Source of the DNA: a bacterium | Lineage (GTDB): Bacteria > Bacillota_I > Bacilli_A > RF39 > UBA660 | Length of the DNA stretch: 57,779 nt | Direction: 5' to 3' | NCBI GenBank assembly: GCA_014846175.1 | Contig: RKAV01000062.1 | Coordinates: forward strand, 1 to 57,779 | Part shown: positions 38,640 through 54,956 of the stretch, in pieces | Position numbering within the stretch: the stretch's first letter is position 1 | How the letters are laid out: the number at the start of each line of letters is the position of its first letter | Translations under genes and position numbers: made by a program | The notes under the pieces: generated by a model | The model's input: only the letters and a program-made list of their open reading frames with translations | What the model was told of the DNA's origin: nothing | Database searches by the model: none

Positions 38640-38671
38640 GTGTAAAGAAGTGGAAAGTTTCGGAAATAAAA

Positions 38672-38700
38672 TTGACATCTTGGCATTTTTTAGTTATTAT
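38672..38700 (+). promoter_or_regulatory. near-consensus sigma-A promoter downstream of recG
   Basis: TTGACA (38672-38677), 17-nt spacer, TATTAT (38695-38700). Confidence 0.6.
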
Positions 38701-38706
38701 TAAGTT

Positions 38707-38820
38707 ACATGATAGGTAGCTTTTACTATTTATCATGAGGTATAATCTACTGCTTTTTATGTAGATATACTTACCGAAACCCCCTGAAGTTCCCTCGAAA
38801 GAGGGAACGCTTTTTGTTTT
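38707..38820 (+). ncRNA. candidate small RNA or leader transcript (unknown family) whose 3' end is the IME integration site
   Basis: Sits between the promoter above and the GNRA-loop terminator TTCCCTC-GAAA-GAGGGAA plus T-run (38790-38820). Internal hairpins CATGATA...TATCATG and ATCTAC...GTAGAT. No ORF with an SD. Confidence 0.35.
38780..38789 (+). repeat. putative att core copy 1 (CCCCCTGAAG)
   Basis: An identical 10-mer recurs at 50167-50176, each time immediately followed by a GAAA-loop terminator hairpin and T-run, about 130 bp (copy 1) or about 95 bp (copy 2) from the 3' end of an integrase gene. Confidence 0.55.
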
Positions 38821-38851
38821 ATAAGGCTTTCTGAGGTTTTTAATTTTTTCT

Positions 38852-38892
38852 AGATACCAAGCCAGATACCAAAAACCTTTTTTCAGATACCA
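38852..38892 (+). repeat. three direct AGATACCA repeats (putative Int-1 arm-type sites)
   Basis: AGATACCA at 38852, 38864 and 38885, between the core and the int-1 stop codon. Confidence 0.5.
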
Positions 38893-38916
38893 AATTTATT
38901 TTTTATTTAAGTTTAT

Positions 38917-40035
38917 TTAAATACCTAGATTTAAATTATCTATGGTATTTTTTACATTAGTAAGATTATTTGGAAACATGTGAGCATAAGTATCTAATGT
39001 TTCTTTAGTACTAGCATGTCCTAAATACTTAGATACAGTTGTTACTGGTTGACCAGTATTAATTAATAATGATGCACAACTATGCCTAAAAGAGTGTAGT
39101 GGAATTCTTCTAATATTAGCACTTTCAGCAATTCGCTTATTTATTCTATGCATCATTCCAAATGTTAGTGGATCTAATTCTCCAAAGATAAACCATTTTT
39201 CATTAAATCCGTAGTATTTCTTTTTATCATTATAAAGATTTACTAAATCATTGTATAAGACATCGGTAAGAGGTAATGTTCTAATACTTTTAGAAGTTTT
39301 AGGTGGAGTTAATTCATAATATTTTTGGCTATCTTTAACGCTATTAGCTTGTTTAGTAATAGATACTAACTTATTATTCCAATCTATATCAGACCATTGG
39401 AGACCTCTTGCTTCGCCTCTACGTAATCCACAATAATATAACATTTCAAACATTGCTTTATCATTTAGATTGGTAGTTCCTGTGATATATTTTTGGAATT
39501 TCTCAAATGTGTAAACATCTTTTTCCACTTTCATTTCATTAGGGTCTTTAAAGAACTCTATTTTTTTATAAAATTTCATTAGATTGATATCATACATTTT
39601 CATTCCCCAATTAAGAATAATCTTAAGAAATTTTTGAACATCATTTCTAGTAGAACATTTAATAGGTTTATTCCATAAGTCTTGTTGGAACTTATGATAT
39701 AGATTCCCATCCATATCTTTTAGTTTAACATTCTCAAAATCAGCAAAATATCTTCTTCTTTTTAAATATGTTTCCATTGTTCTTCTTCTAACTTTATTTT
39801 TTTGAGATTCGATATATTGGTCGGTTAGAGTACCAAATGTCATATCCATATATCCACCAAATTCTACTTTACTATTTAAAAACTCTCTTTCAGCATTCAT
39901 AGCATCTAATTTAGTTTTATATGCTTTAGAAAAACTTTTTTTCCATTTTCCGTTTTTATCTTTTTCATTCCAATAATATTTATATTTACGACCATCTTTA
40001 GTCCATTGATTCTTAGGTAATTTATATATTCCCAT
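38917..40035 (-). CDS. int: tyrosine site-specific integrase (IME-1)
   Basis: N-terminal arm-binding-type segment (WTKDGRKYKYYW). Catalytic region GLRRGEARGL...HSFRHSCASLLI...GHASTKETLDTYAHMF has the R..H-x-x-R..Y pattern. SD AGGAGG. Confidence 0.9.
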   Translation of the reverse strand: MGIYKLPKNQWTKDGRKYKYYWNEKDKNGKWKKSFSKAYKTKLDAMNAEREFLNSKVEFGGYMDMTFGTLTDQYIESQKNKVRRRTMETYLKRRRYFADFENVKLKDMDGNLYHKFQQDLWNKPIKCSTRNDVQKFLKIILNWGMKMYDINLMKFYKKIEFFKDPNEMKVEKDVYTFEKFQKYITGTTNLNDKAMFEMLYYCGLRRGEARGLQWSDIDWNNKLVSITKQANSVKDSQKYYELTPPKTSKSIRTLPLTDVLYNDLVNLYNDKKKYYGFNEKWFIFGELDPLTFGMMHRINKRIAESANIRRIPLHSFRHSCASLLINTGQPVTTVSKYLGHASTKETLDTYAHMFPNNLTNVKNTIDNLNLGI

Positions 40036-40122
40036 ATTTCATTCCTCCTTTTTTGTTGGGATTTATAAATATACCAGTTCGTAACGATTATATTTTATCA
40101 TACAAACTACGAATATTTATAA

Positions 40123-41502
40123 TCATCTCTCAAAATCATCACGTGATTTATTTTTATTTAAATGTTGTTTTGCTTTATCGATAGCAAAGTCAGGATCATT
40201 AGCTTGATGCCAATTATATGGAATATGAAGTACATCTAATAATTTTGTAGTTAAAGAGTATATTTTGTTTTGAATCGTAATTTTAAAATTATTAAATTCT
40301 TCAGTTAATTCTTGAAATTTATTTTTCCAAAATCCTATTTCTTTATTTTTATTTTCAATAATTTCTTTTTGACTATCAATAATTTTCTTTTGATTAATAT
40401 AAGTCTCTCCTGATTTAAAGTTATTAACTTCTTGAGTCAAAGTTTTAATTTCTAAATCCTTTTTAATATTATCTTCAGCAAGTTCTTTTGAGTAAGCAGA
40501 TAGATTATCTATATCTTCATCTTTATATTGTTTTAAAATACCTTTTTTAATAGGATTTAAGATATCTTTAGATGTTTCTATATCAACTTTATCAATAAAC
40601 TTGTTTTCGGTTTTATTTGCCTCTTTTAATAGTTTGTTTTCATTTTTGATTTCTCGATTTAAAGCATTTAACTCAATTTGTTGTTTCATAGCATTAGTTA
40701 AATGAGTTTTATCTTCACCAATTTCTCCTCTAAATAGATTGAATCCTTTAGATTTGATAAATTCATTATAATCATCTTGGAGTAGAGTATAAGATGCATT
40801 ACCACCTTTTTGTTTCCAAAATTGATCTGAATTTAGAAATTTACCTTTAACAGTTTCATAAATATTTTTACCATTCTTATCTTTCTTTTGAATAGGTACT
40901 AATTTCTTTTCTCCTTTTTTATTAGTTATTTCGTGTTTTAATTGATGACCATTTTCATCTAACTCAAATACTTTTCTCTTAACAACATTCACTACTGGAG
41001 TGAAATATATATGCATATGTGGTGTAGATTCATCAAGATGTATTGCTGCATATCTTATATTTTCACTACCTACATATTCTTTAATAAAGTTTAAACTTTC
41101 ATCAAAGAACTTTTTTATTTCGGTTGGTAAATTATGATTTTCATCTATGACTACATGTCTAATAGGCTGACCTGCCTTATCGCCAGTTTTATAAAATTCT
41201 CCGGTATCTTTAAATTCCATTCCATAGTGTTCGAAGAATTCTTGACCACTTGTTATTATTAAACCATTCAATACTTTTGTACTTTTCTTATTTGGATTAT
41301 AGTTTATATTGTTTGAATAAAGATAATCAAAAGTTGAACTAGCTAGAGTAGGACCATCATAATTTATTAATTCTATATTATAAGGAGTTCTAGTGTTATC
41401 ATATTTACCAGAACCTTTTCTTTCTTTTAATTCTTTATCTATTCCACCAATATCTGATGCTTTAAATTTTTCTAATCGTAGTGCTTGTTTTCCTGAGTAC
41501 AT
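40123..41502 (-). CDS. mob: MobV-family relaxase (Mob/Pre plasmid recombination enzyme)
   Basis: N-terminus RLEKFKASDIGGIDKE and HLDESTPHMHIYFTPVV (HxDExxPHxH) are Mob_Pre signatures. Coiled-coil C-terminus. Confidence 0.85.
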   Translation of the reverse strand: MYSGKQALRLEKFKASDIGGIDKELKERKGSGKYDNTRTPYNIELINYDGPTLASSTFDYLYSNNINYNPNKKSTKVLNGLIITSGQEFFEHYGMEFKDTGEFYKTGDKAGQPIRHVVIDENHNLPTEIKKFFDESLNFIKEYVGSENIRYAAIHLDESTPHMHIYFTPVVNVVKRKVFELDENGHQLKHEITNKKGEKKLVPIQKKDKNGKNIYETVKGKFLNSDQFWKQKGGNASYTLLQDDYNEFIKSKGFNLFRGEIGEDKTHLTNAMKQQIELNALNREIKNENKLLKEANKTENKFIDKVDIETSKDILNPIKKGILKQYKDEDIDNLSAYSKELAEDNIKKDLEIKTLTQEVNNFKSGETYINQKKIIDSQKEIIENKNKEIGFWKNKFQELTEEFNNFKITIQNKIYSLTTKLLDVLHIPYNWHQANDPDFAIDKAKQHLNKNKSRDDFER

Positions 41503-41543
41503 TTATTTTGACCTCCTTTCAATGATTGTTTTAAAATAATACT

Positions 41544-41598
41544 CTATCTCACTAGGGCATAATATATGCCCAACCGTGAGCTAAGGAATATTCCTTAG
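41544..41598. other. candidate oriT region of IME-1
   Basis: Lies directly upstream of mob. CTATCTCACTAGGGCATA is conserved with IME-2, followed by palindromes GGGCATAATATATGCCC and CTAAGGAATATTCCTTAG. Confidence 0.4.
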
Positions 41599-41756
41599 AA
41601 TCCTTTATGCTTGTAATAGCTAGAACCAATACCTAATAAATAGGTAAAGGCATTCGCTATCACAAGATTAATTAAACGATATACTATATCATTTAATTAA
41701 TGGATAATGAATTCACTATCGCCACTTCCAACCTTACAGGTTAGAACGTGCCTCGT

Positions 41757-42707
41757 TCATTCATTATTTTCAGAAGGTTCTTCATAAGAACAATGCCATA
41801 ATCTCTCATTAGCAGTTCTTTTACTTGTTATATGAAGACCTTCTTTCTCCAACAAACTTAGGTTTCTTTGAATTAAACCTCCAAGTTGTGTTGGTGTTAA
41901 TAAAATATTTGTTTTAGATAAGATATCTGATATAGTGTAATCAAAATCTTTCTTAGCAACTGCATATTTTATAAATAGTAGTAGATTATAATCAGTTTCA
42001 TCGTCAGTGTTTTCATCTATAACACTAAATGTTTGATTTTCATTTCTTTTTAAATTCAATTCTAATCTACTAAAATCTCTACCTTTATAATCTAAAGTTA
42101 GTTTATTACAATTACTTTTTGATTCTTTTAATTTCATAATTCCAGATGCATCAGCAGTTAGTCTGACACTACCCATAATTCCATTACTTTTATTTAAGTG
42201 ATGTGTAACAAATAATGTACAGTTATATTTTCTACATATTTCTTTAAACTTTTTAAATACAACATTATTTATTTCCTGATAATCGTTTTGATTATAGTTA
42301 CTATCAAATTTAATGTCTTTAAACATATCAATTATTACGAATAATGGTTTTTTATCAAAGGTTAATTCATGAATATCTCTTTCTATATCTCTGATATAAA
42401 AATCTGGAATATCATCTATATCTATAATGTGTAATTTATCTACATTAGGGTTCAAATTCATTAATTTAAATCGGTCTTGTAATTGATTTATGTCGCCCTC
42501 TGTGGTAATATATAAGACATGAGAGGGATTTACTTTGAATCCTAAAAAATCTTCTCCAGTAGTAAGAGAGAAGGCAAGTTGCTGAGCAAACATTGACTTG
42601 CCAACCTTAGGATGAGATACAAGTAGATAAACTCCATTTGATATCATTAGGTTTTCGACGATGATATCTTTTTTTATGCTTTTATTTACTTCGTTTATTT
42701 GTTTCAA
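41757..42707 (-). CDS. RecA-like AAA ATPase (RepA / AAA_25-like) of the IME backbone
   Basis: Walker A SHPKVGKS, Walker B-like LFVIIDMF, and THHLNK typical of the RepA/DnaB-C-like fold. TTG start with SD AAGGAG. Confidence 0.7.
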   Translation of the reverse strand: MKQINEVNKSIKKDIIVENLMISNGVYLLVSHPKVGKSMFAQQLAFSLTTGEDFLGFKVNPSHVLYITTEGDINQLQDRFKLMNLNPNVDKLHIIDIDDIPDFYIRDIERDIHELTFDKKPLFVIIDMFKDIKFDSNYNQNDYQEINNVVFKKFKEICRKYNCTLFVTHHLNKSNGIMGSVRLTADASGIMKLKESKSNCNKLTLDYKGRDFSRLELNLKRNENQTFSVIDENTDDETDYNLLLFIKYAVAKKDFDYTISDILSKTNILLTPTQLGGLIQRNLSLLEKEGLHITSKRTANERLWHCSYEEPSENNE

Positions 42708-42722
42708 TTTGTATCTCCTTTC

Positions 42723-42974
42723 TTACATGTTTTTAATTAATTGTTTACTAGAAACTCTAGATTCTAAATAAGAAATATCTATATCAAAGAATGCTACAAC
42801 TTCTTTAGTTGGTACAACAGACTTTGGAATTAGATAACCTTGCTTTTCTAATTTGTCTTTTATTTTCTTTTTAGCCTTTAGTGCAGAATTCCTACCAAGA
42901 TGTCCAAGTTTCATAATATCTTCTAGAGTGCACCATTGCTTAGCTACTAAATTTAATGTTTCTTCTGCAGTCAT
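42723..42974 (-). CDS. small HTH protein, excisionase / DUF3173-like (tentative)
   Basis: 83 aa, conserved with the 78-aa IME-2 protein (MTAEETL..V.KQWC.LED.MK...GRNSALK.K..IKDKL.KQGY..PK.VVP.KEVV...DI.I.YLESRV). Confidence 0.5.
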   Translation of the reverse strand: MTAEETLNLVAKQWCTLEDIMKLGHLGRNSALKAKKKIKDKLEKQGYLIPKSVVPTKEVVAFFDIDISYLESRVSSKQLIKNM

Positions 42975-42992
42975 ATTTTTATCTCCTTTCCT

Positions 42993-43247
42993 TTAATCTT
43001 TTTGTGGTGATACATAAATGTAATAAGTATCATCAAGTGAATTATAGATAATATATTTTTTCTTTCTTAATTCTCTAAATGCCAGTGCAACATCTTTTCT
43101 ACTATCATTACTAAGAGAGTAGAGGTCAGTATTTTCAAGTTCTTCATTAGTTCTAACTAATAGAGAATTAAGCATACTAGTTGTTCCGATAGATAAATCT
43201 TTAGGAATAATAAATTCTTCAATATTATCTTTCTTAAATAATCTCAT
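42993..43247 (-). CDS. hypothetical small protein (IME-1 only)
   Basis: ORF with SD AGGAGA. No counterpart in IME-2. Confidence 0.4.
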   Translation of the reverse strand: MRLFKKDNIEEFIIPKDLSIGTTSMLNSLLVRTNEELENTDLYSLSNDSRKDVALAFRELRKKKYIIYNSLDDTYYIYVSPQKD

Positions 43248-43271
43248 ATTCACATTCTCCTTTCTTATCAG

Positions 43272-43371
43272 TGTCCGACATTAAGGACAATTCAAATATA
43301 ACATTGTCCGAGAATACTGTCAATACAATTTGGCCGAAAAACTAGACATTTAAACAAAAATGTGGTAAAAT
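43272..43371. promoter_or_regulatory. divergent switch region of IME-1: operator-like TGKCCGA repeats and XRE promoter
   Basis: TGTCCGA at 43272 and 43305, TGGCCGA at 43331. Promoter is TAGACA-17 nt-TAAAAT with TG extension (43343-43371). Confidence 0.45.
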
Positions 43372-43411
43372 CAAATTATTGAGAGAAAAAAGGGGAGAAA
43401 GAAGTGTTATT

Positions 43412-43942
43412 ATGAACTCAGAAGAACTTAAAAATTTAATTGAATCAGCAAGAGAGGTTAAAGGTATTTCACAAAGAGAACTAGCTAAATTAACAGGTAT
43501 TAGTAGAAGTACTTTAAATGATTTAATTAATGGAAAAATAAAAAAAGTAGATATTGATGATCTACGTAAAATTGCAGAAACTTTAGATATGTCATTACAA
43601 AAGCTATTAAAAGCTTCTGGTTATGATGAAATGTCTTTATATTTTCATGCTCATAAAAATAAGGATAAATATGCTGATAAGTCTAGTAAAGATTTAAAAG
43701 AATTAATTGAACAATATAAAGAATCAGAAACGGATTTATTACAATTTGATTTTACTAAAAGAGAAAATGCTAGAAAAGCATCATTTATAATTTTTGAAGT
43801 AGCAGAACACTTGACTTTACTTAAAGATGGTAAAAGTAAATACACTTTAGAACAAGCAATAGAAGAATTAAATAAAGCACAAGAATTACTTAATCCAATT
43901 ATGGATAAGTATGATTATAAAAAATTACCAAAGAAAGATTAG
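43412..43942 (+). CDS. XRE-family regulator with about 110-aa C-terminal extension (IME-1)
   Basis: ISQRELAKLTGISRSTLNDLINGK HTH. Start chosen by alignment with the IME-2 paralogue. Conserved C-terminal end DKYDYKKLP. Confidence 0.75.
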   Translation: MNSEELKNLIESAREVKGISQRELAKLTGISRSTLNDLINGKIKKVDIDDLRKIAETLDMSLQKLLKASGYDEMSLYFHAHKNKDKYADKSSKDLKELIEQYKESETDLLQFDFTKRENARKASFIIFEVAEHLTLLKDGKSKYTLEQAIEELNKAQELLNPIMDKYDYKKLPKKD

Positions 43943-43957
43943 TTAAGAGGTGTTGCA

Positions 43958-45373
43958 ATGCGAATAGGAATAGATATAGATAATGTTCTATCTAATTTTA
44001 ATGATGTATTATTAAACGAATATAAGAAACATGATAATGCAATAAATGGCAAAGGTATAGTTCATCAAGATTTATATATTAGAAATATGTTTAATTGGGA
44101 TAAAGAATATGAAAAAAATTTTTACAAAGAAAATATTGAGTATTTTGCAAGCCTATTTGAACCGATTGAAGAATGTTCTAAATATGTAAAATTATTAAAA
44201 GAAGAAGGAAATACAATTTATATCATTAGTGGTCGAGATAATGGTGAATATTCTAACCCATATAAAATGACCATTGATTGGTTAAAAAAATATGATATTG
44301 TTTATGATAAATTATTTTTGGTAGATGCTTATAATAGTCATTCAAAAACAGAAATATGTATAGAATACAATATTGATGTAATGATAGATGATTCTAAAAG
44401 AATGTGTAAGGACATAAAGGATAATGGTATTAGAGCATTACTTATGGATACACCATATAATAGAGATACAAATGAATTTGAAAGAGTTAATTCATGGAAA
44501 GAAATTTATAACAAATTATCTAATAAAAAAATTAATGTGATACTTGATACAGATACTTATAATGAATGTGATGACCAATTTGCATTAGCCTATTTAATTA
44601 AGTCACAAGATATGTTTAATATTGAGGCAATTACAGTAGCACCATATTCTCATACAAAAAGAGATGTAAAAGTAATAGATGGACAAGAGTTGAGTTATAA
44701 TGAAATTTTAAAAATATGTAATTGGTTAAATTTTGATACCATTGATAAAGTATTTAAAGGATCAATGGACTATATTCAAAATGGATATGATGAAAATAAT
44801 GATGCAGTAAATAAAATAATTGAAGTGGCGCTTAAAAACGATAAAACCTATATATTAGGAATTGGAGCTATAACTAATATTGCTTTAGCTATAAAAAAAG
44901 AACCTAAGATAATTGATAGAATAGAAATCATTTGGTTAGGTGGAAATGAAATAGAATATAAAGATAATTTAGAATATAATTTCAAACAAGATATAGAGGC
45001 TGTAAAAATAGTGTTTGATTCTACAGTGAAAATGACTATACTACCTTGCAAAAATGTAGTATCAGATTTAAGAATAGATATAGCTGAATTAAAAAGTAAA
45101 TTAGATAATAGGAAAGAATTAAATAAATATTTAATTGAGAGATTTTATAATGATGGATATCATGGAATACAAGAAACAAGAGTAATATGGGATATATCAG
45201 TAATAGCATATATGATAAATAAAAATTGGTTTGAAACAGAAAAAATTAGTTGTCCCAATATCAAGGAAGATAGTTCTTATGAATTAACTGATAATAGACA
45301 TAGTATAACTTTTGTAACTAAATTAGATAGAGATAGAATATATGAAGATTTATTTAGAAAGTTAGGAGTATGA
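43958..45373 (+). CDS. fusion protein: NT5C-type 5'(3')-deoxyribonucleotidase (HAD) N-terminal domain plus inosine-uridine-type nucleoside hydrolase-like C-terminal domain
   Basis: N-terminus MRIGIDIDNVLSN (HAD motif I DxDxV), IISGR, MIDD. From aa ~192, NVILDTDTYNECDDQFALAYL resembles the IUNH DxDxxxDD Ca-binding motif with two extra residues. Later GIGAITNIALA. Confidence 0.65.
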   Translation: MRIGIDIDNVLSNFNDVLLNEYKKHDNAINGKGIVHQDLYIRNMFNWDKEYEKNFYKENIEYFASLFEPIEECSKYVKLLKEEGNTIYIISGRDNGEYSNPYKMTIDWLKKYDIVYDKLFLVDAYNSHSKTEICIEYNIDVMIDDSKRMCKDIKDNGIRALLMDTPYNRDTNEFERVNSWKEIYNKLSNKKINVILDTDTYNECDDQFALAYLIKSQDMFNIEAITVAPYSHTKRDVKVIDGQELSYNEILKICNWLNFDTIDKVFKGSMDYIQNGYDENNDAVNKIIEVALKNDKTYILGIGAITNIALAIKKEPKIIDRIEIIWLGGNEIEYKDNLEYNFKQDIEAVKIVFDSTVKMTILPCKNVVSDLRIDIAELKSKLDNRKELNKYLIERFYNDGYHGIQETRVIWDISVIAYMINKNWFETEKISCPNIKEDSSYELTDNRHSITFVTKLDRDRIYEDLFRKLGV

Positions 45374-45376
45374 ATT

Positions 45377-45985
45377 ATGAAATTAACAAGCGATGAAGCA
45401 TTAAAACTAATTGAAAAAGAAAGAAATGAAACATCAAATGAACGATGGATAAATCATTCTATTTGTGTTGGTAATGCTGCAGGTAAAATAGCAGAAGCAT
45501 TAAATTTGAATATAGATTATGCAAAAACCTTAGGATATATTCATGATATTGGCAAAAAATTTAAGTATGATGAAAAAGGTGTATTTCCACATGCAATGAA
45601 TGGATATAAATATATTAAATCATTAGGATATGACGAGGATTATGCAGGAATTTGTATTAAACATTCATTTTTAAATAATGATATAGATTGTATTTCAAAC
45701 GATCGTGATGAAACAGATAAAAGTAATGAAAATTATGATTTTGTAAAACAGTATATAAGTAAAGAATATTCCATATATGAAAAAATTATAAATCTTTGCG
45801 ATTTAATGTGTACTACAAAAGTTTTAACAGTGGATAAAAGAATGATAGATTTGTTATATAGACATGGTGTCTATGCTAAAACACATTATCATATAGAAGA
45901 AACTATTAAATTGAAGGAATATTTTGATAATTTATTAGGATACAATTTATATGATTTGTTTTCTGAGATAAAAGAAAATTTGTAG
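45377..45985 (+). CDS. HD-domain phosphohydrolase (202 aa)
   Basis: INHSICVGNAAGKIAE...LGYIHDIGK carries the H...HD metal-binding signature. Similar in size to the YfbR-type 5'-deoxynucleotidases. Confidence 0.6.
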   Translation: MKLTSDEALKLIEKERNETSNERWINHSICVGNAAGKIAEALNLNIDYAKTLGYIHDIGKKFKYDEKGVFPHAMNGYKYIKSLGYDEDYAGICIKHSFLNNDIDCISNDRDETDKSNENYDFVKQYISKEYSIYEKIINLCDLMCTTKVLTVDKRMIDLLYRHGVYAKTHYHIEETIKLKEYFDNLLGYNLYDLFSEIKENL

Positions 45986-45993
45986 GTGATGTT

Positions 45994-46593
45994 ATGCGAA
46001 TAGGAATAGATATAGATGGCGTATTAACCGACATAGAACAATGGCAGTTAGATTATGGAAGTAAGTTTTATTTTGAAAAATATAATAAACAAATATTAGA
46101 TAATGAAGGCTATGAAACAACTGATATATTTAAAGTTGATAGTAAATTAGATGATGAGTTTTGGACTGAATATTTCAAAGATTATTCGATAAATGTTGAT
46201 GTTAGAAAATTGGCTAGCGAGGTAATTAAAAAACTAAAACAGGATGATAATGAAATTTATATTATTACCGCAAGAGGTAGTTTTTTATCACATTCTGCAA
46301 ATGTAATGCTTTTTGAAGAAAATAAAAATATTGTTTTAGAGTGGCTTAGAAAAAATGAAATTGAGTATGACAAAATAATATTTAGTCCAGAAGATAAACT
46401 TAGTATATGTATAGAAAATAATATTGATGTAATGATAGAAGATAAAGTTGATAACATAAATAAAATATCATCTAGAATTCCAGTTATATGTTTTCATGCA
46501 GGATATAACAAAAATTGTATTGGTGATAATATTATTAGATGTTATAGTTGGTATGACATATATAGTAAAATAAATAAAATGGTTCAAAAATGA
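45994..46593 (+). CDS. NT5C-type 5'(3')-deoxyribonucleotidase-like HAD protein
   Basis: MRIGIDIDGVLTD (DxDxV), IITAR, MIEDK. Paralogous to the N-terminal domain of the 471-aa protein. Confidence 0.6.
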   Translation: MRIGIDIDGVLTDIEQWQLDYGSKFYFEKYNKQILDNEGYETTDIFKVDSKLDDEFWTEYFKDYSINVDVRKLASEVIKKLKQDDNEIYIITARGSFLSHSANVMLFEENKNIVLEWLRKNEIEYDKIIFSPEDKLSICIENNIDVMIEDKVDNINKISSRIPVICFHAGYNKNCIGDNIIRCYSWYDIYSKINKMVQK

Positions 46594-47807
46594 AAAGATT
46601 ACTAAGAATTAGTTTTGATTTATCATTATTATCATTTATACCAATAATATCTTGGTTTTTACTTGGAATAATAGTTGATAAGAATTTAATTAATATATTT
46701 ACACTAACTTATCCGTTACAATTTATATATTATATAATTAAATCTATATTTTCTACTGGAGCTAATATAAGTAAAGAAAAAGATAAAAACGAAAATGCAG
46801 TAATGTCAGGTTTAGTATTAGGAACAATTGTTTCTATAATTATTTTTACTATAATTCTATTAAATGTGGATAATTATATTAGTTTTATGAATATGGATAT
46901 AAGTACATATAAAAACTTTACTATATATTCAATATTACAACTATTCATTTGTTTAGAATTTGCGATGATGCAAGATAAACTATATTATGAAGAAAAAAAT
47001 AAATTAGCAAATAAGTATTCTTTAGTATTTAATTTGTTAAATTTTATATTATTGATTGGAACATCTTTAATAACAAAAAATCAAATTATTATAATTGCAA
47101 CAACATTGATTCCATTAGCGATATATACTTTGTATATTTATATTAAAAATAGTAATAATTTTAAATTTAATATTAATGTATTAAAATGTATAAAATACGA
47201 TTCAGTTGAATTGTTCAATAATATTGCATTCTTTTTAATATTCTTGTTTGGATTATCTAATGCCTTAGAATATGGAGAAATGTATGCAACTGCTTTAACT
47301 TTTATAGCATTAATAACAGATACACAGTGGGATACTTTTGTTGCTATAAAAGAGGCAGCAACAATAGATATTAGTAAAAGAAAATTTAATTATATAGAAC
47401 ATAGAAATAATGCTTACAAATTATTAGGAATATTATTTGGGACAAGCTTAATTATGTTTGTATTATTATATGGATTTTATGATTTAGATTTTAAAATTAC
47501 AATGCTATATTTTTCATTTGAAATAGTTAATTTTTTAATTTATCCAATATATAGAATTAAAACTTGTTATTTACAATTGGAATATTCAGCTTTTAAAATT
47601 ACATCAAATAAGATAATAGCATCAATACTTAGAATGTTTATTTCGTTATTAAAAACACCATTTTGTACAGGAATAGGACAAGTGTGTTCATCAGTTTATC
47701 AATTTATAACAGTTAGTATAATGTTTGGTCATAATTTTAAAATTGATAAAACAGGTTGTGTTGTTAAAAAGAAATCAATATTGAATAATGACACTATGAC
47801 ATTATAA
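46590..47807 (+). CDS. polytopic membrane protein (about 12 TM, MOP/MATE-flippase-like topology; function unknown)
   Basis: ATGA start-stop overlap with the preceding gene. I count about twelve hydrophobic segments in the translation. Confidence 0.5.
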   Translation: MKRLLRISFDLSLLSFIPIISWFLLGIIVDKNLINIFTLTYPLQFIYYIIKSIFSTGANISKEKDKNENAVMSGLVLGTIVSIIIFTIILLNVDNYISFMNMDISTYKNFTIYSILQLFICLEFAMMQDKLYYEEKNKLANKYSLVFNLLNFILLIGTSLITKNQIIIIATTLIPLAIYTLYIYIKNSNNFKFNINVLKCIKYDSVELFNNIAFFLIFLFGLSNALEYGEMYATALTFIALITDTQWDTFVAIKEAATIDISKRKFNYIEHRNNAYKLLGILFGTSLIMFVLLYGFYDLDFKITMLYFSFEIVNFLIYPIYRIKTCYLQLEYSAFKITSNKIIASILRMFISLLKTPFCTGIGQVCSSVYQFITVSIMFGHNFKIDKTGCVVKKKSILNNDTMTL

Positions 47808-47966
47808 ATGTGAGTAGGATACTAACAAACAATGTGTCATGTATCATTTAATAATAAAAATAATGAAATATGTGATATAATAGTATATATAAAAAGAAGC
47901 GCTAGTACAGGCTTATGATTATAAGTTTTTGTATTGGCGTTTTTTTCGTAGTAAGGAAGTGATAAA

Positions 47967-50024
47967 ATGAATTTAAATTTAGAAAATGGATATACTGTTA
48001 CTTTACCTTCAAAAGGAAAGCATAATATATATTATGGACCAAATAAAATAGGTAAAACTCAGATATCTCGTTCGATGAAAAAATATTATGAAGAAATAAG
48101 TGAAAAAGTTCTTTTGTTTAATGAAAATATTTTAAGTGATATGATTATTCAAAGTAGTGAAGATATTAATTCTTTTGAAGTAATGCCTATGGCACAAGAG
48201 TATAATAAATACTATAATAATATGCAAAAAAGTAAAGAAAAATTATCAATGAAAAATAGTTTAAAGGATTTATGCTTAGTTAATACAAAAAAGGCATTTC
48301 AAGGGTTTGAAAAAATAAGTGAGTATATTAATGATGATAATACTTATTCTTATAATGGTGATGCTTTATCACCAGTTTATAGTCAAGATGATATCAAGGA
48401 TATGTATAAGCCAAAAAAGGTAAATATGAATATTTTTGAAATAATTGATAATCTGAAAAAGGATAATATCAAAATAATACCAGATAATGTTAAGAAAATT
48501 GTTGAGTATGATATATATAACATTCAATTGAAAATAAATCAAGACCCAGATAAATACAAGAATTGTCCTGTTTGTTTTTCACCTATTTGTCAAGAGAATT
48601 TAGATAATATAAGGGAAAGCATTGAAAATGGTTCAATCGAAAAAGAATTGCAATTATCAATATTATTCTATTTAGATAATAAAAGTGATATTTTAAGAAA
48701 TAAAATGTCTGAGATATTATTATGTGAATCATATGAATCCTTTGAAAAAGATTTTAAGTTAGATGTTGAAAAATCTATTATTTCTTATTTAAGTAATCAG
48801 TATGATAAAAAGGATGTTATAAATTATAAAGAAAATAAAACAAAAGTTGAAGAAATATTAAATAAAACAAAGGATTTTAAAATAAATGAAAATGTTGAAT
48901 TAAGTAATTATATAAAAAATAAATTAAAGAATCATACGGTTTATAAAAATACAGATATAGAAATAAAAATTAGTGATGGAAAGTTAAAAGTTTTAAATAG
49001 TCAAGTTGAATATGATAAAATGTCTAAATCGGAACAAAATTATTTCAAATTTCTTTATTTTGATATTTTAGTTCATCAAAAGATTTTAGAAGGGAATTTG
49101 CATATAATTATTGATGATCCATTTGATAGTTATGATGATATTTATGTCCAAGATTCAATAGCAATAATAACAAAATTAATAAATGAACATATTGAAGATA
49201 TTGATACAATTGATATTTTTTCTCACAGTATGTATATTCTTGATTTATATGATTCATTGAAAAAAATATATAATAAATTTAATATTTACTGGATGGATCA
49301 AATTGGTTTAACAAAAGAAATAAATATATTTGAAGATGGCTATCTTTTGTTTGAAAAAATAGATATAAATCCTTACGATTATGGAATTATATTGAAGATT
49401 AGCGATAAAATGGTTGATAAATATTCATTGATTGTATTTGCTGCACTTTTAAGAAATGAAATAAATGTAGAGCGTTTGTTATTTAAAAATAATAGCAATG
49501 GTGAACTTTCTGATGTGAAAAATAAAGTAGAAGAACTATATAATAAAATATCAGAATCAATCGATCATGTGAGGGAGGAAATATCAATAATTGAATTAAA
49601 TAACATTATTAATGAAATATTTTATTTTGGCTTAAACGATAACGAAATACAGAATGTGTCATCTTTATTTGATGATATTTCAAAAGATTATGTTGATATA
49701 GATATAAAAGCAAAAACTGGTTCTGGAAATGTTGTATCGGTTCCTAAAAATGATATTTGTTATATATTAATTTATAAAATATTATTTGGTTTGAAAATTA
49801 GAAGATTATTAGAAAAGAAGGTTTATGATATTGTACAAGAAGACTACACTGAAGTGTGGGATTTAATTGAAAAAATACCAAATACTCCATTGTATGATTA
49901 TTATAATTTATATAAATACATAATTAATTCGTTTAATCATTCTTCATCAAGAGTTGTTCCACCAATTTTTGTGTATAGTTTCAAATCATTACGAGAAATG
50001 TATGAAGAATTACAAGCATTGTAG
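47967..50024 (+). CDS. AAA_13 / PrrC-RloC-like ABC-type ATPase with unknown C-terminal domain (685 aa)
   Basis: Walker A-like YYGPNKIGKTQ, central coiled region with CPVCFSPIC, signature-like MSKSEQNYF, Walker B IIIDDPFDSYDD (compare the DDPxSSLD of this family). About 270 aa of C-terminal sequence carries no motif I recognise. Confidence 0.55.
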   Translation: MNLNLENGYTVTLPSKGKHNIYYGPNKIGKTQISRSMKKYYEEISEKVLLFNENILSDMIIQSSEDINSFEVMPMAQEYNKYYNNMQKSKEKLSMKNSLKDLCLVNTKKAFQGFEKISEYINDDNTYSYNGDALSPVYSQDDIKDMYKPKKVNMNIFEIIDNLKKDNIKIIPDNVKKIVEYDIYNIQLKINQDPDKYKNCPVCFSPICQENLDNIRESIENGSIEKELQLSILFYLDNKSDILRNKMSEILLCESYESFEKDFKLDVEKSIISYLSNQYDKKDVINYKENKTKVEEILNKTKDFKINENVELSNYIKNKLKNHTVYKNTDIEIKISDGKLKVLNSQVEYDKMSKSEQNYFKFLYFDILVHQKILEGNLHIIIDDPFDSYDDIYVQDSIAIITKLINEHIEDIDTIDIFSHSMYILDLYDSLKKIYNKFNIYWMDQIGLTKEINIFEDGYLLFEKIDINPYDYGIILKISDKMVDKYSLIVFAALLRNEINVERLLFKNNSNGELSDVKNKVEELYNKISESIDHVREEISIIELNNIINEIFYFGLNDNEIQNVSSLFDDISKDYVDIDIKAKTGSGNVVSVPKNDICYILIYKILFGLKIRRLLEKKVYDIVQEDYTEVWDLIEKIPNTPLYDYYNLYKYIINSFNHSSSRVVPPIFVYSFKSLREMYEELQAL

Positions 50025-50030
50025 AATTCT

Positions 50031-50051
50031 AGATACCAAAACTAGATACTA
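50031..50051 (+). repeat. AGATACCA / AGATACTA repeats at the right arm of IME-1
   Basis: TTCTAGATACCAA (50027-50039) is identical to 38848-38860. A second CTAGATACTA follows. Confidence 0.5.
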
Positions 50052-50166
50052 AATCTCAAAAATAAAGCTATTTTTATAAGCTTTGATAAATTTTTATAAA
50101 AGAAAAAGCCTTATTTTGCAAGACTTTAACAAATTATTAAATTATTACGAACTGATAATAATATTT

Positions 50167-50176
50167 CCCCCTGAAG
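50167..50176 (+). repeat. putative att core copy 2 (CCCCCTGAAG)
   Basis: Identical to 38780-38789. Confidence 0.55.
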
Positions 50177-50208
50177 AGGAATCGAAAGATTCCTCATTTT
50201 TGTTTTTT
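50177..50208 (+). terminator. GAAA-loop terminator hairpin following core copy 2
   Basis: AGGAATC-GAAA-GATTCCT then CATTTTTGTTTTTT. Same architecture as 38790-38820 but a different stem sequence. Confidence 0.6.
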
Positions 50209-50260
50209 GCTTGAAATTACAAGGGTTTGTTAATTTTAAATTTTATAAATTAATGCTTTC

Positions 50261-50289
50261 AACTACCAATTAACTACCAAAATCTACCA
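50261..50289 (+). repeat. three direct AACTACCA/ATCTACCA repeats (putative Int-2 arm-type sites)
   Basis: AACTACCA at 50261 and 50272, ATCTACCA at 50282. They overlap the 3' end of int-2. Confidence 0.45.
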
Positions 50290-51415
50290 TTGTAGCATCA
50301 GTACAAGTTAGTTTATTTATGGTATTTACAGCATCATAAAGTTTATCTTTGAACATATGAGTATAAGTATCTAAAGTTTCTTCGATTGAAGCATGACCTA
50401 AGAAATCAGATACAACTGCTATATTAGTATTATTATTAATTAATAGTGATGCACAACTATGCCTAAAGTCGTGTAATCTTATTCTTTTAATATTAGCTTT
50501 TTTAGCAATTTCAATATTCTTATGCCTCATTTGATAGAATGTTATAGGAAGATAATTTCCAAATATAAACCATTCATCGTTAAATTCAGCAAATTGCTTT
50601 TGCTCATCATATAGCTTTTTTAAATCATTAAATAATACATTAGCAATAGGTAATATCCTATTACTTTTTTTAGTTTTTGGCTGTGTTAATTCATAATTTG
50701 TACAAGTTTCAGATCCATGTGTAACAGCTTGTTTTGTAATAGATACTGATTTATTATTCCAATTAATATCTTTCCATTGTAAGCCTCTAGCTTTACCTCT
50801 ACGAAGTCCTAGATAATATAAAGTTTCATACATACATTTAATTTGTAAGTTAGGGGATTCTGATATAAATTGATTAAATTCTTCTAAAGTATAGAAATCC
50901 ATTTCTTTCTTTAAATCAGATGCTGTAGTAAAACTTTCCATTCTGCTATAAAATTTACTCATATTGAAACCATAAGTCTTAGTTGCCCAATTAATTACAA
51001 TCTTTAAGAATTTTTGAATTTCATTTTTATAACTATTTGAACAATCTACTTTCATCATTTCAGCTCTCCATCTTTGATAATGAGTAGCATCCATATCTTT
51101 TAATTTAACTTTATCAAACATTCCAATATATTTAATTCTATCTCGATAAGTCTTTAAAGTTGACCATCTTACTATATTTTTTTGAACTTCGTAATATTTT
51201 GTGTACAAATCTTTGAAGGTCATATTCATATCTCCTTCAAATACTTCAGCCATTTTTAAATATTCTTTTTCAGCACGTTTTGCTTCTGCCTCAGTTTTAT
51301 ATGCTTTGGAAAACTTTTTGTGTTTTTTACCATCTAAACCTGTTTCCCAAATATACCATATATATTTACGACCATCTTTAGTCCATTTGCTTTCTTCTAA
51401 TAGTCTAACTGCCAT
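50270..51415 (-). CDS. int: tyrosine site-specific integrase (IME-2)
   Basis: GLRRGKARGL...HDFRHSCASLLI...GHASIEETLDTYTHMF. Paralogous to int-1. SD AGGAGG lies 7 nt before the ATG at 51415. Confidence 0.9.
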   Translation of the reverse strand: MAVRLLEESKWTKDGRKYIWYIWETGLDGKKHKKFSKAYKTEAEAKRAEKEYLKMAEVFEGDMNMTFKDLYTKYYEVQKNIVRWSTLKTYRDRIKYIGMFDKVKLKDMDATHYQRWRAEMMKVDCSNSYKNEIQKFLKIVINWATKTYGFNMSKFYSRMESFTTASDLKKEMDFYTLEEFNQFISESPNLQIKCMYETLYYLGLRRGKARGLQWKDINWNNKSVSITKQAVTHGSETCTNYELTQPKTKKSNRILPIANVLFNDLKKLYDEQKQFAEFNDEWFIFGNYLPITFYQMRHKNIEIAKKANIKRIRLHDFRHSCASLLINNNTNIAVVSDFLGHASIEETLDTYTHMFKDKLYDAVNTINKLTCTDATMVDFGS

Positions 51416-51509
51416 TTTCATTCCTCCTTTGCTTAGATTAGACTATTCACGCACTTCAGTTGGTAGTTTACCATATTTAATTATTTTTTCCAACTGAAGT
51501 GCGATAGTT

Positions 51510-52922
51510 TTATCTTTCTATTTCAAAATCATCTTTATTTTTATGGTTTTTACTATAATAACCATAATTAATAGCATCAGCTATATTTTCATATTCTTCT
51601 AATTTATCTTTAGGTTTATCTCTACCTAAAACTTTATCTAGTGCTTTACATATCTTTTTAAGTAGAAATTTCCATTTATCAACTTCAGTTTCTAATTTAG
51701 TTTTTAAACTCTCGATATTATTACTTAGTATATTAACTAAATCATTTAATCTACCAATTTCTTGTTTTTGTTCCTTAATTATTTTATTTTTCTTTAATAA
51801 TTCATTGTTATTTTTAAAAGTTTTGTTTTCTTCAGTAAGTTTAGCAATTTCCATATCTTTATTAGCGTTATCAGTACTTAAGATGATTATTTTGTGTTGT
51901 AATCCTTTTGTGTATTTAATTATCTTAAAAACATCATCTTCTTTATAACCACCAAGTTTTCTTTTAGTAGGATTTAATACATTACTATAATCACTATTAT
52001 ATTCGAGATTTTTAAGTCCATTTTTAGAGTTTTCAATAATCTTTAAGGTATTCTCCTTTTCTTTATTTAATTCTTCTAATTCGACTTTTTTCTCGGCAAT
52101 ATCATAATCTAGTTTTGATTGATTTTCTTTATTAGAACCAACATCTCCACGATAGAGATTAAATCCTTTTTCAGTAATAAACTTATTAAAGTCATTTTGC
52201 ATTTGATGAAAAGATAATTTACCACCTTTATCTTTCCAAAATTGATCACAGTTTAAAAATTTACCATTTACTTCTTCATAAACAATTTTACCTTTATCAT
52301 CACGAAGTAATTTAGGTACAATAGAGGTAGTTCTATCTTTCTTTTTTATTTCTTCTTTAACAACATTACCATTTTCATCTTTTACAAAACATTTTCTTTT
52401 AACTTTAGTAACTACGGGAACAAAATAAGCTTGTAGGTGAGGAGTATCTTCATCATAGTGAATTTGTGATAATAAGATATTTTCTTCACCAACATATTCT
52501 TTTAAAAACTCCATACAAGAGTCAAAAAAGTAACTTACAGCTTTTGTTATATCTCCTTTAGCTTTAATATCAGGAATCATTACTGCTTGTCCTTTTTTAT
52601 CTCCTGTATGATAAGTTCTACCACTATCTTTAAATTTCATTCCAAGTGATTGAAAGAATTCAGGACCACTTGTGAATGTTACACCATTTAAAAGGTTAGT
52701 GTTAGGTCTATTTTGATATTCAATATTTCTTACTTTTAAATTATTCTTAACTTCTTGATATAAATTATTTTGAGTAAGAGATACATATTCAACATTAAAT
52801 ATAGTTCTATCTTTATCATAATTACCTGTACCTTTTCTATCAGTCATTTCTACACCAATATTATAAAGGTCATCTTTTTTACATTGAGTTTCAACTCGTA
52901 CTACTTGTTTTCCATCATACAA
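51510..52922 (-). CDS. mob: MobV-family relaxase (IME-2)
   Basis: HYDEDTPHLQAYFVPVV and collinear similarity to the IME-1 relaxase. TTG start with SD AAGGAG. Confidence 0.8.
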   Translation of the reverse strand: MYDGKQVVRVETQCKKDDLYNIGVEMTDRKGTGNYDKDRTIFNVEYVSLTQNNLYQEVKNNLKVRNIEYQNRPNTNLLNGVTFTSGPEFFQSLGMKFKDSGRTYHTGDKKGQAVMIPDIKAKGDITKAVSYFFDSCMEFLKEYVGEENILLSQIHYDEDTPHLQAYFVPVVTKVKRKCFVKDENGNVVKEEIKKKDRTTSIVPKLLRDDKGKIVYEEVNGKFLNCDQFWKDKGGKLSFHQMQNDFNKFITEKGFNLYRGDVGSNKENQSKLDYDIAEKKVELEELNKEKENTLKIIENSKNGLKNLEYNSDYSNVLNPTKRKLGGYKEDDVFKIIKYTKGLQHKIIILSTDNANKDMEIAKLTEENKTFKNNNELLKKNKIIKEQKQEIGRLNDLVNILSNNIESLKTKLETEVDKWKFLLKKICKALDKVLGRDKPKDKLEEYENIADAINYGYYSKNHKNKDDFEIER

Positions 52923-53119: not shown

Positions 53120-54027
53120 TTAATTACTAGTTCTAGACTTTGTTATATGAAGGCCTTCTTTTTCTAATAAATCAATATTTAAATTTAATGATCTTCCAAA
53201 ACGTAGAGCAGTTGTTTTTAACTTAGCATCATGAATAATACTTGTAGAAGTAAATTCAAAATCTTTTTTATATGATGCATACTTAATAAAAAGAATTAAG
53301 TTTTCATCAATTTCATCATCTTCAATTGAATTACTTATTTTAAAAGTTTGATTTTTATTTCTTTTTAAATCTATATCAAAACCTTCAAAATCTCTATTAA
53401 TTACTTTCATAGTTAAATGATTATGGTCATTTCTATTCTCAAACAAAGTAATTTTACCATCTATACAAGCATCAAAAGCTGTACTACCTAATGTTTCATT
53501 CCTTTTATTTAAGTGATGAGTAAATAGAATAGTGATATTGTATTTCTCGCATAATTCTCTTAACTTAGGCATTAACTTTTGAGCTACATCTTGAAAATCA
53601 TTAATATCATAAGAGATACCTAAATCCATATCTTTAAGCATATCTATTATTACAAATTTATTAGTAGTTTTATCACCAGCAAAATCAGCAATTTCATATT
53701 CATGGTCAAATATACTTATAGTAGATTTTCCATCTCTCTATCCATGATAAATAATGAGCTTTCCTTTGGAGTTAATTGTAATGTTTTGTATCTGTCTTGT
53801 AATTGACCAAAATCAGACTCTGTGCTAATATATAATACAGGTGAAAGAGTTACTTTGTGTCCTAGAAATGGTAATCCATTTGTAAGGCAGTAGGAAAGTT
53901 GCAGTGCCAACATAGACTTTCCTACTTTAGGTTTTGATACAAGTAAATATACACCTTTAGACCTCATTAGTCCTTCGACAATGATGTCTTTTTTTTCACT
54001 TGTATCTATCTCTTCAATTAGTTTCAT
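53120..54027 (-). pseudogene. RecA-like AAA ATPase of IME-2, split by a frameshift
   Basis: ORF 53716..54027 carries the Walker A (SKPKVGKS). ORF 53120..53641 carries FTHHLNK and the C-terminus. The C-terminal frame stays open upstream to about 53745 (GKSTISIFDHEYEIADF...KFVIIDMLKDM), so a single frame change near 53745-53760 explains the split. Confidence 0.7.
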
Positions 54028-54431: not shown

Positions 54432-54956
54432 ATGGATAAAGAGATTACTTTAAAAACTTTAATTGAAGGTGGAAGAGATATAAAGAATTTTTCTCAAAGA
54501 GAACTTGCCAGAAGAATAGGATTAAGTAATACATCATTAAATGATCTTGAAAATGGAAAAGTTCAAAAACCTGATATAGAAGTATTAAGAAAAATTGCTG
54601 AAGAACTCGATTTGTCTTTAGAACAATTATTAAAAGCAGCAGGATATAATGCCATAACAACAATGCTAACTAGTGATGAGTTTCAAAATAAATCAACTAG
54701 AGATTTAAAAAATATTATTAAAGAGTGCAGAAACTTTAAGTATGACATTTTAGATTGGGATAGTAATAAACGAAATATAACAAGAAATGTAATGGCTGAT
54801 TTAGAAAGAATTACACATAAATTAGAGCTTATAAGAGATAATCGAGGAATAAACTACACATTAGATAATGCGATAGAAGATATTAATAAATCTTTAGAAG
54901 AGTTAAAAGATGTAGTTAAGAAATATGATTATAGTAAATTACCTAATGACTTATAG
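54432..54956 (+). CDS. XRE-family regulator with C-terminal extension (IME-2)
   Basis: FSQRELARRIGLSNTSLNDLENGK HTH. C-terminal KKYDYSKLP as in IME-1. Confidence 0.75.
   Translation: MDKEITLKTLIEGGRDIKNFSQRELARRIGLSNTSLNDLENGKVQKPDIEVLRKIAEELDLSLEQLLKAAGYNAITTMLTSDEFQNKSTRDLKNIIKECRNFKYDILDWDSNKRNITRNVMADLERITHKLELIRDNRGINYTLDNAIEDINKSLEELKDVVKKYDYSKLPNDL

Follow-up and report, generated by a model that had tools for sequence, protein, structure and literature searches.

Here, we present an analysis of a five-gene operon in a 57,779-nt contig of an uncultured gut bacterium of the Bacilli (GenBank assembly GCA_014846175.1, contig RKAV01000062.1; lineage RF39, UBA660), which was analyzed at its full length and is referred to as the window. 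The operon lies on the plus strand at 43412–47807 within an integrative and mobilizable element (IME), here IME-1, and encodes an XRE-family regulator, a fusion of an NT5C-type HAD nucleotidase with a nucleoside hydrolase (FUS), an HDIG-type HD phosphohydrolase or phosphodiesterase (HD), a stand-alone NT5C-type HAD nucleotidase (NT5C2), and a 12-helix membrane protein (TM12). Based on the predicted activities of these proteins, we tentatively propose that the operon could function in nucleotide-pool sanitation or in resistance to nucleoside or nucleobase antimetabolites, in which the substrates would be dephosphorylated, deglycosylated, and exported. Domain analysis detected no sensor or regulatory domain in the operon's proteins, and the unrestrained degradation of normal nucleotides would be wasteful; for these reasons, the enzymes most likely act selectively on nucleotides that are non-canonical or toxic. 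All of the proteins can be placed in known superfamilies. By contrast, the libraries and papers searched contained no description of the fusion of NT5C with the hydrolase, of the hydrolase subfamily with DxDx5DD, of the narrow families of HD and the MATE-like protein, or of their joint carriage by mobile elements, and our literature searches recovered neither the fusion nor the operon.

Judging by family membership, HD would cleave phosphoanhydride or phosphodiester bonds in nucleoside polyphosphates or dinucleotides to yield monophosphates, from which either of the two NT5C-type HAD modules would remove the last phosphate. The hydrolase domain of FUS would then cut the N-glycosidic bond of the nucleoside handed over by the fused nucleotidase, releasing base and sugar, and TM12, with its modeled MATE fold, would export the nucleoside or the base. 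In this order of reactions (HD, NT5C, hydrolase), the fusion would channel the intermediate.

The XRE gene (43412–43942; HTH_3, E=3e-14, 53 bits) encodes an N-terminal helix-turn-helix domain and a C-terminal domain of ~100 aa, and is followed by the genes for FUS (43958–45373; 471 aa), HD (45377–45985; 202 aa), NT5C2 (45994–46593; 199 aa), and TM12 (46590–47807; 405 aa), all on the plus strand. The gaps between XRE and FUS, FUS and HD, and HD and NT5C2 are 15, 3, and 8 nt, respectively, and NT5C2 runs into TM12 with a 4-nt overlap, ATGA, that can be read in the sequence. A first-pass annotation of the window had described five tightly packed same-strand genes behind the element's own XRE regulator, and these positions bear it out; its domain calls for XRE, the fusion, HD, and the second NT5C protein likewise all scored above the Pfam gathering cut-offs. 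A divergent promoter-like pair is located at 43295–43371 between the backbone operon of the element and XRE, with a minus-strand site (TTGACA/TATATT, 11 of 12 consensus matches, with TG) and a plus-strand site (TAGACA/TAAAAT, with TG), both of which are consensus matches only. From the operon rightwards, no terminator was predicted before 50176. Based on the 15-nt gap, the divergent promoter pair, and the lack of a predicted terminator before this position, we infer that XRE and the downstream genes are cotranscribed. Moreover, the place of the operon directly behind the element's XRE suggests that its expression takes place in the integrated element, presumably from the XRE promoter.

Predicted activities of the operon's proteins

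FUS is composed of a nucleotidase (residues 1–190) and a nucleoside hydrolase (residues 194–471). Against the NT5C model, with its gathering cut-off of 24.8 bits, the N-terminus of FUS scored 53.7 bits (residues 3–187) and NT5C2 35.9 bits (E=9e-9). The HAD motifs of FUS are D6-I-D8-N-V, S91, K130, and D144-D145, which are invariant in 10 homologs save S91, which was read directly; those of NT5C2, read from the translation, are D6-I-D8-G-V, T92, K135, and E149-D150. The best viral match of both modules was phrog_420, a family of unknown function (E=1e-21 for FUS and 1e-18 for NT5C2). Both modules share the HAD fold, the DxDxV, S/T, K, and DD residues, and the length of ~190–200 aa with the 5'(3')-deoxyribonucleotidases NT5C/NT5M (cdN/mdN; PF06941) and the YorS-type enzymes of B. 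subtilis SPbeta, a family that also occurs in phages and prophages. However, here one copy is fused to a hydrolase, the other is coupled to a MATE-like pump, and the identity to the Bacillus phage "deoxyribonucleotidases" is 29%.

The hydrolase domain matched IU_nuc_hydro with 87.9 bits (cut-off 34.2), FUS residues 194–462 covering positions 1–296 of the 297 in the model. With the Ca2+-dependent nucleoside N-ribohydrolases (IU-NH, IAG-NH, RihA/B/C; PF01156), it shares this full-length match, the Asp cluster, the T-N and E-x-N motifs, and the final Asp. In detail, the four Asp residues of the fingerprint D197xD199x5D205D206 correspond to those in the DxDxxxDD of YeiK, FUS having two more residues in the spacer, and the counterparts of T306-N307, E339/N341, and D412 in the Crithidia enzyme 1MAS are T126, E166/N168, and D242. 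The His that precedes the last Asp in group I enzymes is replaced by W411 in a profile alignment to solved enzymes; a Trp at this position is a mark of the group II purine-specific IAG-type hydrolases (PMC8910321). W411 occupies the first of two group II marker positions; the second, a Trp in the beta3-alpha3 loop, falls into an unalignable region. FUS differs from the characterized N-ribohydrolases in having DxDx5DD rather than DxDx3DD, in its fusion to a nucleotidase, and in that no close relative has a solved structure, the best PDB match (E=6e-15) covering only the central part of the domain. The nearest annotated relatives are stand-alone "nucleoside hydrolases" with 33–35% identity (E ~1e-50), and the extended fingerprint D-[ST]-D-T-[FY]-N-E-x-D-D-Q is common to them and FUS; by sequence, they would together form a new subfamily. 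The gene of the closest stand-alone relative, from a Klebsiella plasmid, is flanked by those for a PfkB-family kinase and a NupC-type transporter in what is predicted to be a nucleoside catabolic operon. This context argues that the subfamily is genuinely nucleoside-cleaving. The sugar specificities implied by the "deoxy" label of NT5C and by an IUNH-type ribonucleoside hydrolase do not obviously agree with each other.

HD scored 37.7 bits with Pfam HD (cut-off 22) and 37.8 bits with the NCBIfam model TIGR00277 (HDIG; cut-off 27.6), and its family is narrow with 2320 matches. The residues H27, H56-D57, H72, H96, and D142 are invariant in the pattern H..HD..K..H..H..D, and K60 is invariant in one alignment (A3) and nearly so in another (A5). 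A sequence profile matched the OxsA-like PDB entry 1xx7 with E=0.004 and YqeK with E=0.2 or worse, and single-sequence PDB searches with HD and with NT5C2 were uninformative. In Foldseek searches with an AlphaFold model of HD (pLDDT 89), the nearest folds were the PgpH HD domain, HD-GYP, YqeK, and YpgQ (TM 0.4–0.5). HD shares its metal residues and its length of ~200 aa with YqeK (an Ap4A hydrolase), YpgQ (an NTP pyrophosphohydrolase), PgpH (a c-di-AMP phosphodiesterase), YfbR, OxsA, and PenF, all of which have nucleotide substrates; however, with Foldseek E-values of 4.5e-3 or worse, TM values of ~0.4–0.5, and no significant sequence match, HD falls outside the YqeK, YpgQ, and PgpH families and into a narrow family of its own. 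The proteins with these nearest folds all act on nucleotides or dinucleotides, and none is close enough for its substrate to be transferred to HD. Altogether, the alignments and direct reading indicate that the two HAD modules, the hydrolase, and HD have each conserved their catalytic residues, in agreement with the motifs that the first-pass annotation had read in the translations; the loss of these residues on alignment, which that annotation had named as a refutation, was not observed.

Pfam, NCBIfam, PADLOC, and PHROGs all lacked a match to TM12, whose family is small: 1.84 billion representatives yielded 265 clusters at 50% identity. A profile of 48 family members matched PfMATE-type structures (E ~0.007), and MatE alone among the Pfam families was matched repeatedly (weakly, by 2 of the 48 members); TM12 of the window itself did not match Pfam MatE (PF01554) even at E=1. 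The AlphaFold model (pLDDT 93.9, pTM 0.92) has twelve long helices, in line with the 12 transmembrane segments counted in the first-pass annotation, and its top Foldseek matches were all MATE proteins (E down to 8e-7, TM 0.62–0.74). Among 46 PDB matches of the model at E<=1e-3 (TM 0.6–0.74), MATE proteins led and the flippases WzxE and MurJ ranked lower. Based on the profile match, the repeated Pfam matches to MatE, and the modeled fold, TM12 is predicted to be a divergent MATE/MOP-fold exporter and not an uptake permease. It has the 12-helix fold of MATE transporters of the MOP superfamily (PfMATE, Aq_128, NorM) but differs in its length (~405 rather than ~450 aa), the lack of a Pfam MatE match, and its narrow family. 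We rejected TM12 as an MFS or nucleoside permease, because hhalign showed no relation to MFS-like neighbors and the fold is MATE/MOP, and also as an obligate partner of nucleotidases throughout its family, because members with 26–40% identity occur in housekeeping and unrelated contexts. Several distant members, among them those in L096 and L100 (5001–6206) of the related loci (numbered from L001 on), lie in a conserved lepA-hemN-TM12-hrcA-grpE-dnaK-dnaJ locus. This housekeeping position suggests that the mobile TM12 clade may derive from an ordinary chromosomal exporter family with a core physiological role.

Distribution and candidate functions

FUS has >4400 database homologs with the same two-domain architecture. 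Relatives are present in 390 species-representative genomes, nearly all from gut samples and assigned to uncultured Bacilli, "Tenericutes," or CAG-type "Clostridium," names that we take to stand for reduced-genome RF39-like lineages; one host has a genus name, Candidatus Onthousia, and is placed in the Bacilli incertae sedis. Linkage was counted over 79 species-level loci. The HD gene follows that of FUS at a distance of up to four genes in 57 loci and is adjacent to it in 36, a stand-alone NT5C gene and TM12 are each present in 18, and all four families occur together in 10. Where TM12 is present, it adjoins a gene for an NT5C domain in 13 of the 18 loci, in either order. From these counts, the conserved core is FUS-HD, and NT5C2-TM12 is a facultative add-on, which refines the picture of the operon given in the first-pass annotation. 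The block at 43948–47847 is 98% identical in L004/L089 where all surroundings differ, and a deletion variant of it is present in L002. The proximity of HD to FUS in 57 of 79 loci together with the recurrence of this block argues that the clustering of these genes is not due to chance.

The module is carried by at least four kinds of mobile-element backbone: IMEs with tyrosine integrases, other Mob_Pre elements that abut FUS-HD, elements with serine recombinases, and a region resembling an integrative and conjugative element with a sortase, CHAP, and a coupling protein. These backbones and the 98% identity in another context indicate, at the sequence level, that the module moves horizontally. 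In a seed-based count with a 10-kb radius over 80 loci, a recombinase or relaxase was found in 20, probably an underestimate, and none was nearby in ~75%. In six species, FUS is located directly after secA. The usual neighbors are genes for His-phosphatases, GNAT acetyltransferases, HAD and PHP phosphatases, a 2H phosphoesterase, NUDIX proteins, an MccF-like S66 peptidase, a small P-loop kinase-like protein, and ABC, MFS, and MATE pumps. Many of the loci L001–L080 as well as L081–L088 and L098 have long same-strand arrays of short genes (~60–250 aa) for acetyltransferases, phosphatases, small kinases, and pumps, the composition of which varies among species.

These neighbors, and in particular the acetyltransferases, phosphatases, and pumps, point to detoxification or house-cleaning rather than to a typical defense island, and the operon most resembles a house-cleaning or resistance operon. 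Among the roles considered in the first-pass annotation, detoxification with export gains and an accessory salvage module loses, because TM12 is predicted to be an exporter, which disfavors uptake-based salvage. A precedent is provided by PenF, an HD enzyme that acts on the phosphates of nucleoside analogs (PMC11592144). In human cells, thiopurine resistance mediated by NT5C2 and followed by nucleoside efflux has the same logic, in which a toxic nucleotide analog loses its phosphate and can then exit the cell, and it differs from the operon here in the organism, the HAD subfamily, the lack of the additional hydrolase and HD enzyme, and the lack of mobility of the genes. The hosts of FUS probably depend on imported nucleosides, and a sanitation role would suit them. 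FUS-HD is abundant in these uncultured small-genome gut Bacilli, which have hardly been characterized biochemically. If the clearance and export of analogs is correct, the module would confer horizontally mobile tolerance to natural nucleoside toxins and could affect nucleoside-analog drugs passing through the gut.

Several observations weigh against sanitation or antimetabolite resistance. No toxin candidate was identified, and the proposed substrates of all four proteins are candidates. The fold matches of the HD model are moderate (TM ~0.5). MOP-fold proteins include flippases for lipid-linked glycans, although these scored lower against TM12, and distant TM12 relatives (26–40% identity) are found in housekeeping loci without nucleotidases, such that the pump may be a general exporter loosely coupled to the enzymes. 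Finally, the resistance-like character of the neighbors is an impression at the level of families, and a minority of the neighbors are defense-like (Fic/SoFic, AriA-like ATPases, and a PDDEXK nuclease).

It is doubtful that the operon has an ordinary function in accessory nucleotide and nucleoside catabolism and pool homeostasis, in which surplus or RNA-derived nucleotides would be broken down to base and ribose to supply carbon and recycle bases and the location on a mobile element would be incidental. The closest stand-alone relative of the hydrolase, in its operon with a ribokinase-like protein and NupC, is consistent with such a function, as are the occurrence of the fusion in a single host group, with at least 390 species genomes that carry it, and the fixed chromosomal position secA-FUS-HD in some subclades; moreover, the neighboring 2H phosphoesterase and His-phosphatase could process 2',3'-cyclic or 3'-phosphates from RNA decay. 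However, the operon encodes neither a ribokinase nor an importer, the linked membrane protein has the fold of an exporter and not that of a nucleoside importer, and the unregulated cytoplasmic breakdown of normal nucleotides would be costly. Likewise, the variable contexts, the multiple copies that a genome can have, and the spread at 98% identity are traits of accessory and not of core metabolism.

A function in defense against phages or other mobile elements, by depletion of (deoxy)nucleoside monophosphate pools or destruction of phage-specific modified nucleotides, is unlikely. Candidate targets would be dUMP or 5-hydroxymethyl-dUMP (5-hmdUMP)-type nucleotides or modified purines, the loss of which would block phage DNA synthesis, and specificity would take the place of a sensor; if correct, this would represent a sensor-free, metabolite-selective mechanism that relies on specificity instead of the sensing of infection. 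In phage lambda, rexAB lies behind cI, and the operon has a similar position directly behind a repressor-like XRE. It is also carried on several types of mobile elements. Downstream of the identical block in L089 lie genes for a MazG-like protein, a Schlafen-type helicase, Fic, and AAA_15/21 proteins, and recurrent neighbors elsewhere match the PADLOC families SoFic/PDC-S04, AriA-like, and PDC-S02. In four species, a gene for a protein of ~314 aa that matches the whole model of the 5-hmdU DNA kinase helical domain (E=9e-106; L009:8152-9096, with relatives in L024, L040, and L063) lies one to four genes from FUS, and this domain occurs in a validated Escherichia coli defense system (PMC13092281). 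HAD phosphatases are also found in recently described defense systems (DS-9 in PMC13092281). The sister IME described below pairs a pyrimidine nucleotidase with an ORF of the uracil-DNA glycosylase (UDG) superfamily.

Against defense, PADLOC-DB v2 yielded no match for FUS, NT5C2, TM12, or orf685 (a P-loop protein encoded downstream of the operon), a weak Cas3-HD match for HD, and a generic HTH match for XRE. The locus is, thus, unassigned in the defense library, as the first-pass annotation had expected, while the defense role that it had put forward draws on position and a weak neighborhood signal, with neighbors that are mostly small-molecule enzymes and efflux pumps. The commonest neighbors are not hallmarks of defense, sensor and regulatory domains are missing, the exporter would have no obvious role, and the ~75% of loci without a nearby recombinase or relaxase and the position of FUS after secA do not fit well. 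IUNH-type hydrolases act on ribonucleosides (consistent with PMC8910321), which makes them a poor fit to DNA precursors. Nucleotide-depleting anti-phage enzymes (dCTP deaminase, dGTPase, PUA-Cal-HAD, and CARF-HAD effectors) also act on nucleotide pools, some of them by HAD chemistry; in contrast, the operon has no homology to them that PADLOC detected, is sensor-less, and has a glycosidic-bond hydrolase and an exporter. We also consider it improbable that the operon provides a sensor-less immunity in which FUS and HD destroy non-canonical phage nucleotides before incorporation, the MATE-like pump expels the base, and mobile elements spread the genes.

Finally, it is very unlikely that the operon is anti-defense cargo that degrades the nucleotide immune signals of a recipient (cyclic oligonucleotides or cyclic ADP-ribose [cADPR] isomers), with an HD phosphodiesterase that linearizes them and nucleotidases and a XopQ-like hydrolase that finish the degradation: the cyclic-dinucleotide phosphodiesterases PgpH and HD-GYP are among the nearest folds of HD, the IUNH-like effector XopQ is reported to cleave 2'cADPR (bioRxiv 10.64898/2026.06.15.732069), and the same arrays repeatedly contain 2H enzymes and enzymes with the metallo-beta-lactamase fold, but the fold similarity is moderate with YqeK and YpgQ matching about equally, the majority of copies lie on the chromosome, an exporter would have no explanation, and the place behind a repressor suggests expression in the integrated state and not on entry.

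The integrative element IME-1

IME-1 spans ~38780–50206 (11.4 kb) and is delimited by att-like repeats with the operon inside. The attL-like core (38780–38820) consists of CCCCCTGAAG, the hairpin TTCCCTC-GAAA-GAGGGAA, and then TTTTTGTTTT, and the attR-like core (50167–50206) is a matching composite motif, such that CCCCCTGAAG, a hairpin with a GAAA loop, and TTTTTGTT are found at both ends. Three direct repeats of AGATACCAA (38852–38893) lie beside the integrase gene; the AGATACCAA repeats are probably arm-type integrase-binding sites, and analogous CTACCAA repeats (three copies) adjoin the integrase gene int2 of the sister IME. On the minus strand, the backbone encodes a tyrosine integrase (38917–40035; Pfam Phage_integrase, E=2.4e-26), a Mob_Pre-type relaxase (40123–41502; Mob_Pre, E=2.3e-20), an AAA_25 (RepA/DnaB-like) ATPase that likely serves as a replication or maintenance module (41757–42707; AAA_25, E=2.8e-26), and two small ORFs. 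An integrase and a relaxase are, thus, present without conjugation machinery, att-like sites flank the element, and it is present or absent between genomes, as expected from the sequence features of an IME.

In L001, IME-1 is present with 94.5% identity over window positions 36915–50219, the second element is absent, and the composite att motif is found at both ends of the single element. These observations support that IME-1 extends from ~38780 to 50206 and carries the operon, as the first-pass annotation had claimed in calling it cargo. Consistently, the homology of the window to L001 and L003 stops at 50205–50219. The record of L001 (CAVDCT010000006.1) is labeled Roseburia sp. and its DNA has ~25% G+C; all other relatives are from uncultured Bacilli, and the label is probably due to mis-binning.

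In L003/L093, the same site after recG has the same attL core, arm repeats, attR, and cargo, without an integrase, a relaxase, and an AAA_25 gene and with XRE missing its 5' half. We conclude that L003/L093 (8200–17100) is an internally deleted, immobilized copy of IME-1 that kept its cargo. The presence of the cargo after recG in L003, with no integrase, raised the possibility that the operon is chromosomal flank; we rejected it, as attL, the arm repeats, and attR are all still present in L003. In these copies, genes for a His-phosphatase and a GNAT protein are inserted ahead of FUS, a 258-aa ORF is inserted ahead of TM12, and TM12 is split into ORFs of 65 and 272 aa.

The att core is located at the terminator end of a ~110-nt stretch that is preceded by a promoter-like site and lies downstream of recG (window 38672–38838); this stretch may be a small RNA gene that serves as the integration target. 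A full-length RAGATH-12 match on the attL core (38762–38838) is unreliable, as it reaches 26 bits (E=0.0018) where the gathering score is 75, and the second att copy has no match. A nucleotide search of 38800–50300 against plasmid and phage collections returned no match.

Further cargo and a sister element in tandem

Downstream of the operon, IME-1 carries a further cargo gene, orf685 (47967–50024, plus strand), which lies outside the conserved block and is swapped for other genes in L004/L089. It encodes a 685-aa P-loop protein with the Walker A motif GPNKIGKT, a CPVC motif, and a Walker-B-like IIIDDPFDS, motifs that presumably resemble those of AAA_13/PrrC-like ABC ATPases; no match was found in Pfam, NCBIfam, PADLOC, PHROGs, or PDB. 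The 159-nt spacer upstream of orf685 holds TGTGATATAAT, an extended −10-like promoter at ~47872, based on which orf685 is probably under the control of its own promoter. The only convincing plus-strand terminator-like site is at 50176–50195, 3' of orf685, where the attR-like core doubles as an intrinsic terminator and as the left junction of a sister IME.

The backbone of this sister IME begins at 50270 and has 70–75% DNA identity to that of IME-1. It comprises int2 (50270–51421), a Mob_Pre gene (51510–52922), an AAA_25 gene in two ORFs (53120–53641 and 53716–54027) that is probably a pseudogene, and an XRE gene (54432–54956) homologous to that of IME-1 and in the same position. A third att copy that would close the element was not found before the end of the window (57779). 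The well-delimited IME-1 with its tandem accretion would provide a model for such elements, alongside the putative new hydrolase subfamily and MATE-like transporter family. The first cargo gene behind the sister XRE encodes a UMPH-1-type pyrimidine 5'-nucleotidase (54975–55772; E=2e-48) and is followed by a UDG-superfamily gene with an apparent frameshift, of which the N-terminal part with GQDWGP lies at 55787–56059 and the remainder, in another frame, at 56152–56472 (Pfam UDG, E=5e-7). Because this nucleotidase occupies the same place behind XRE, nucleotide-directed cargo is a theme of this element family, which fits detoxification and defense alike.

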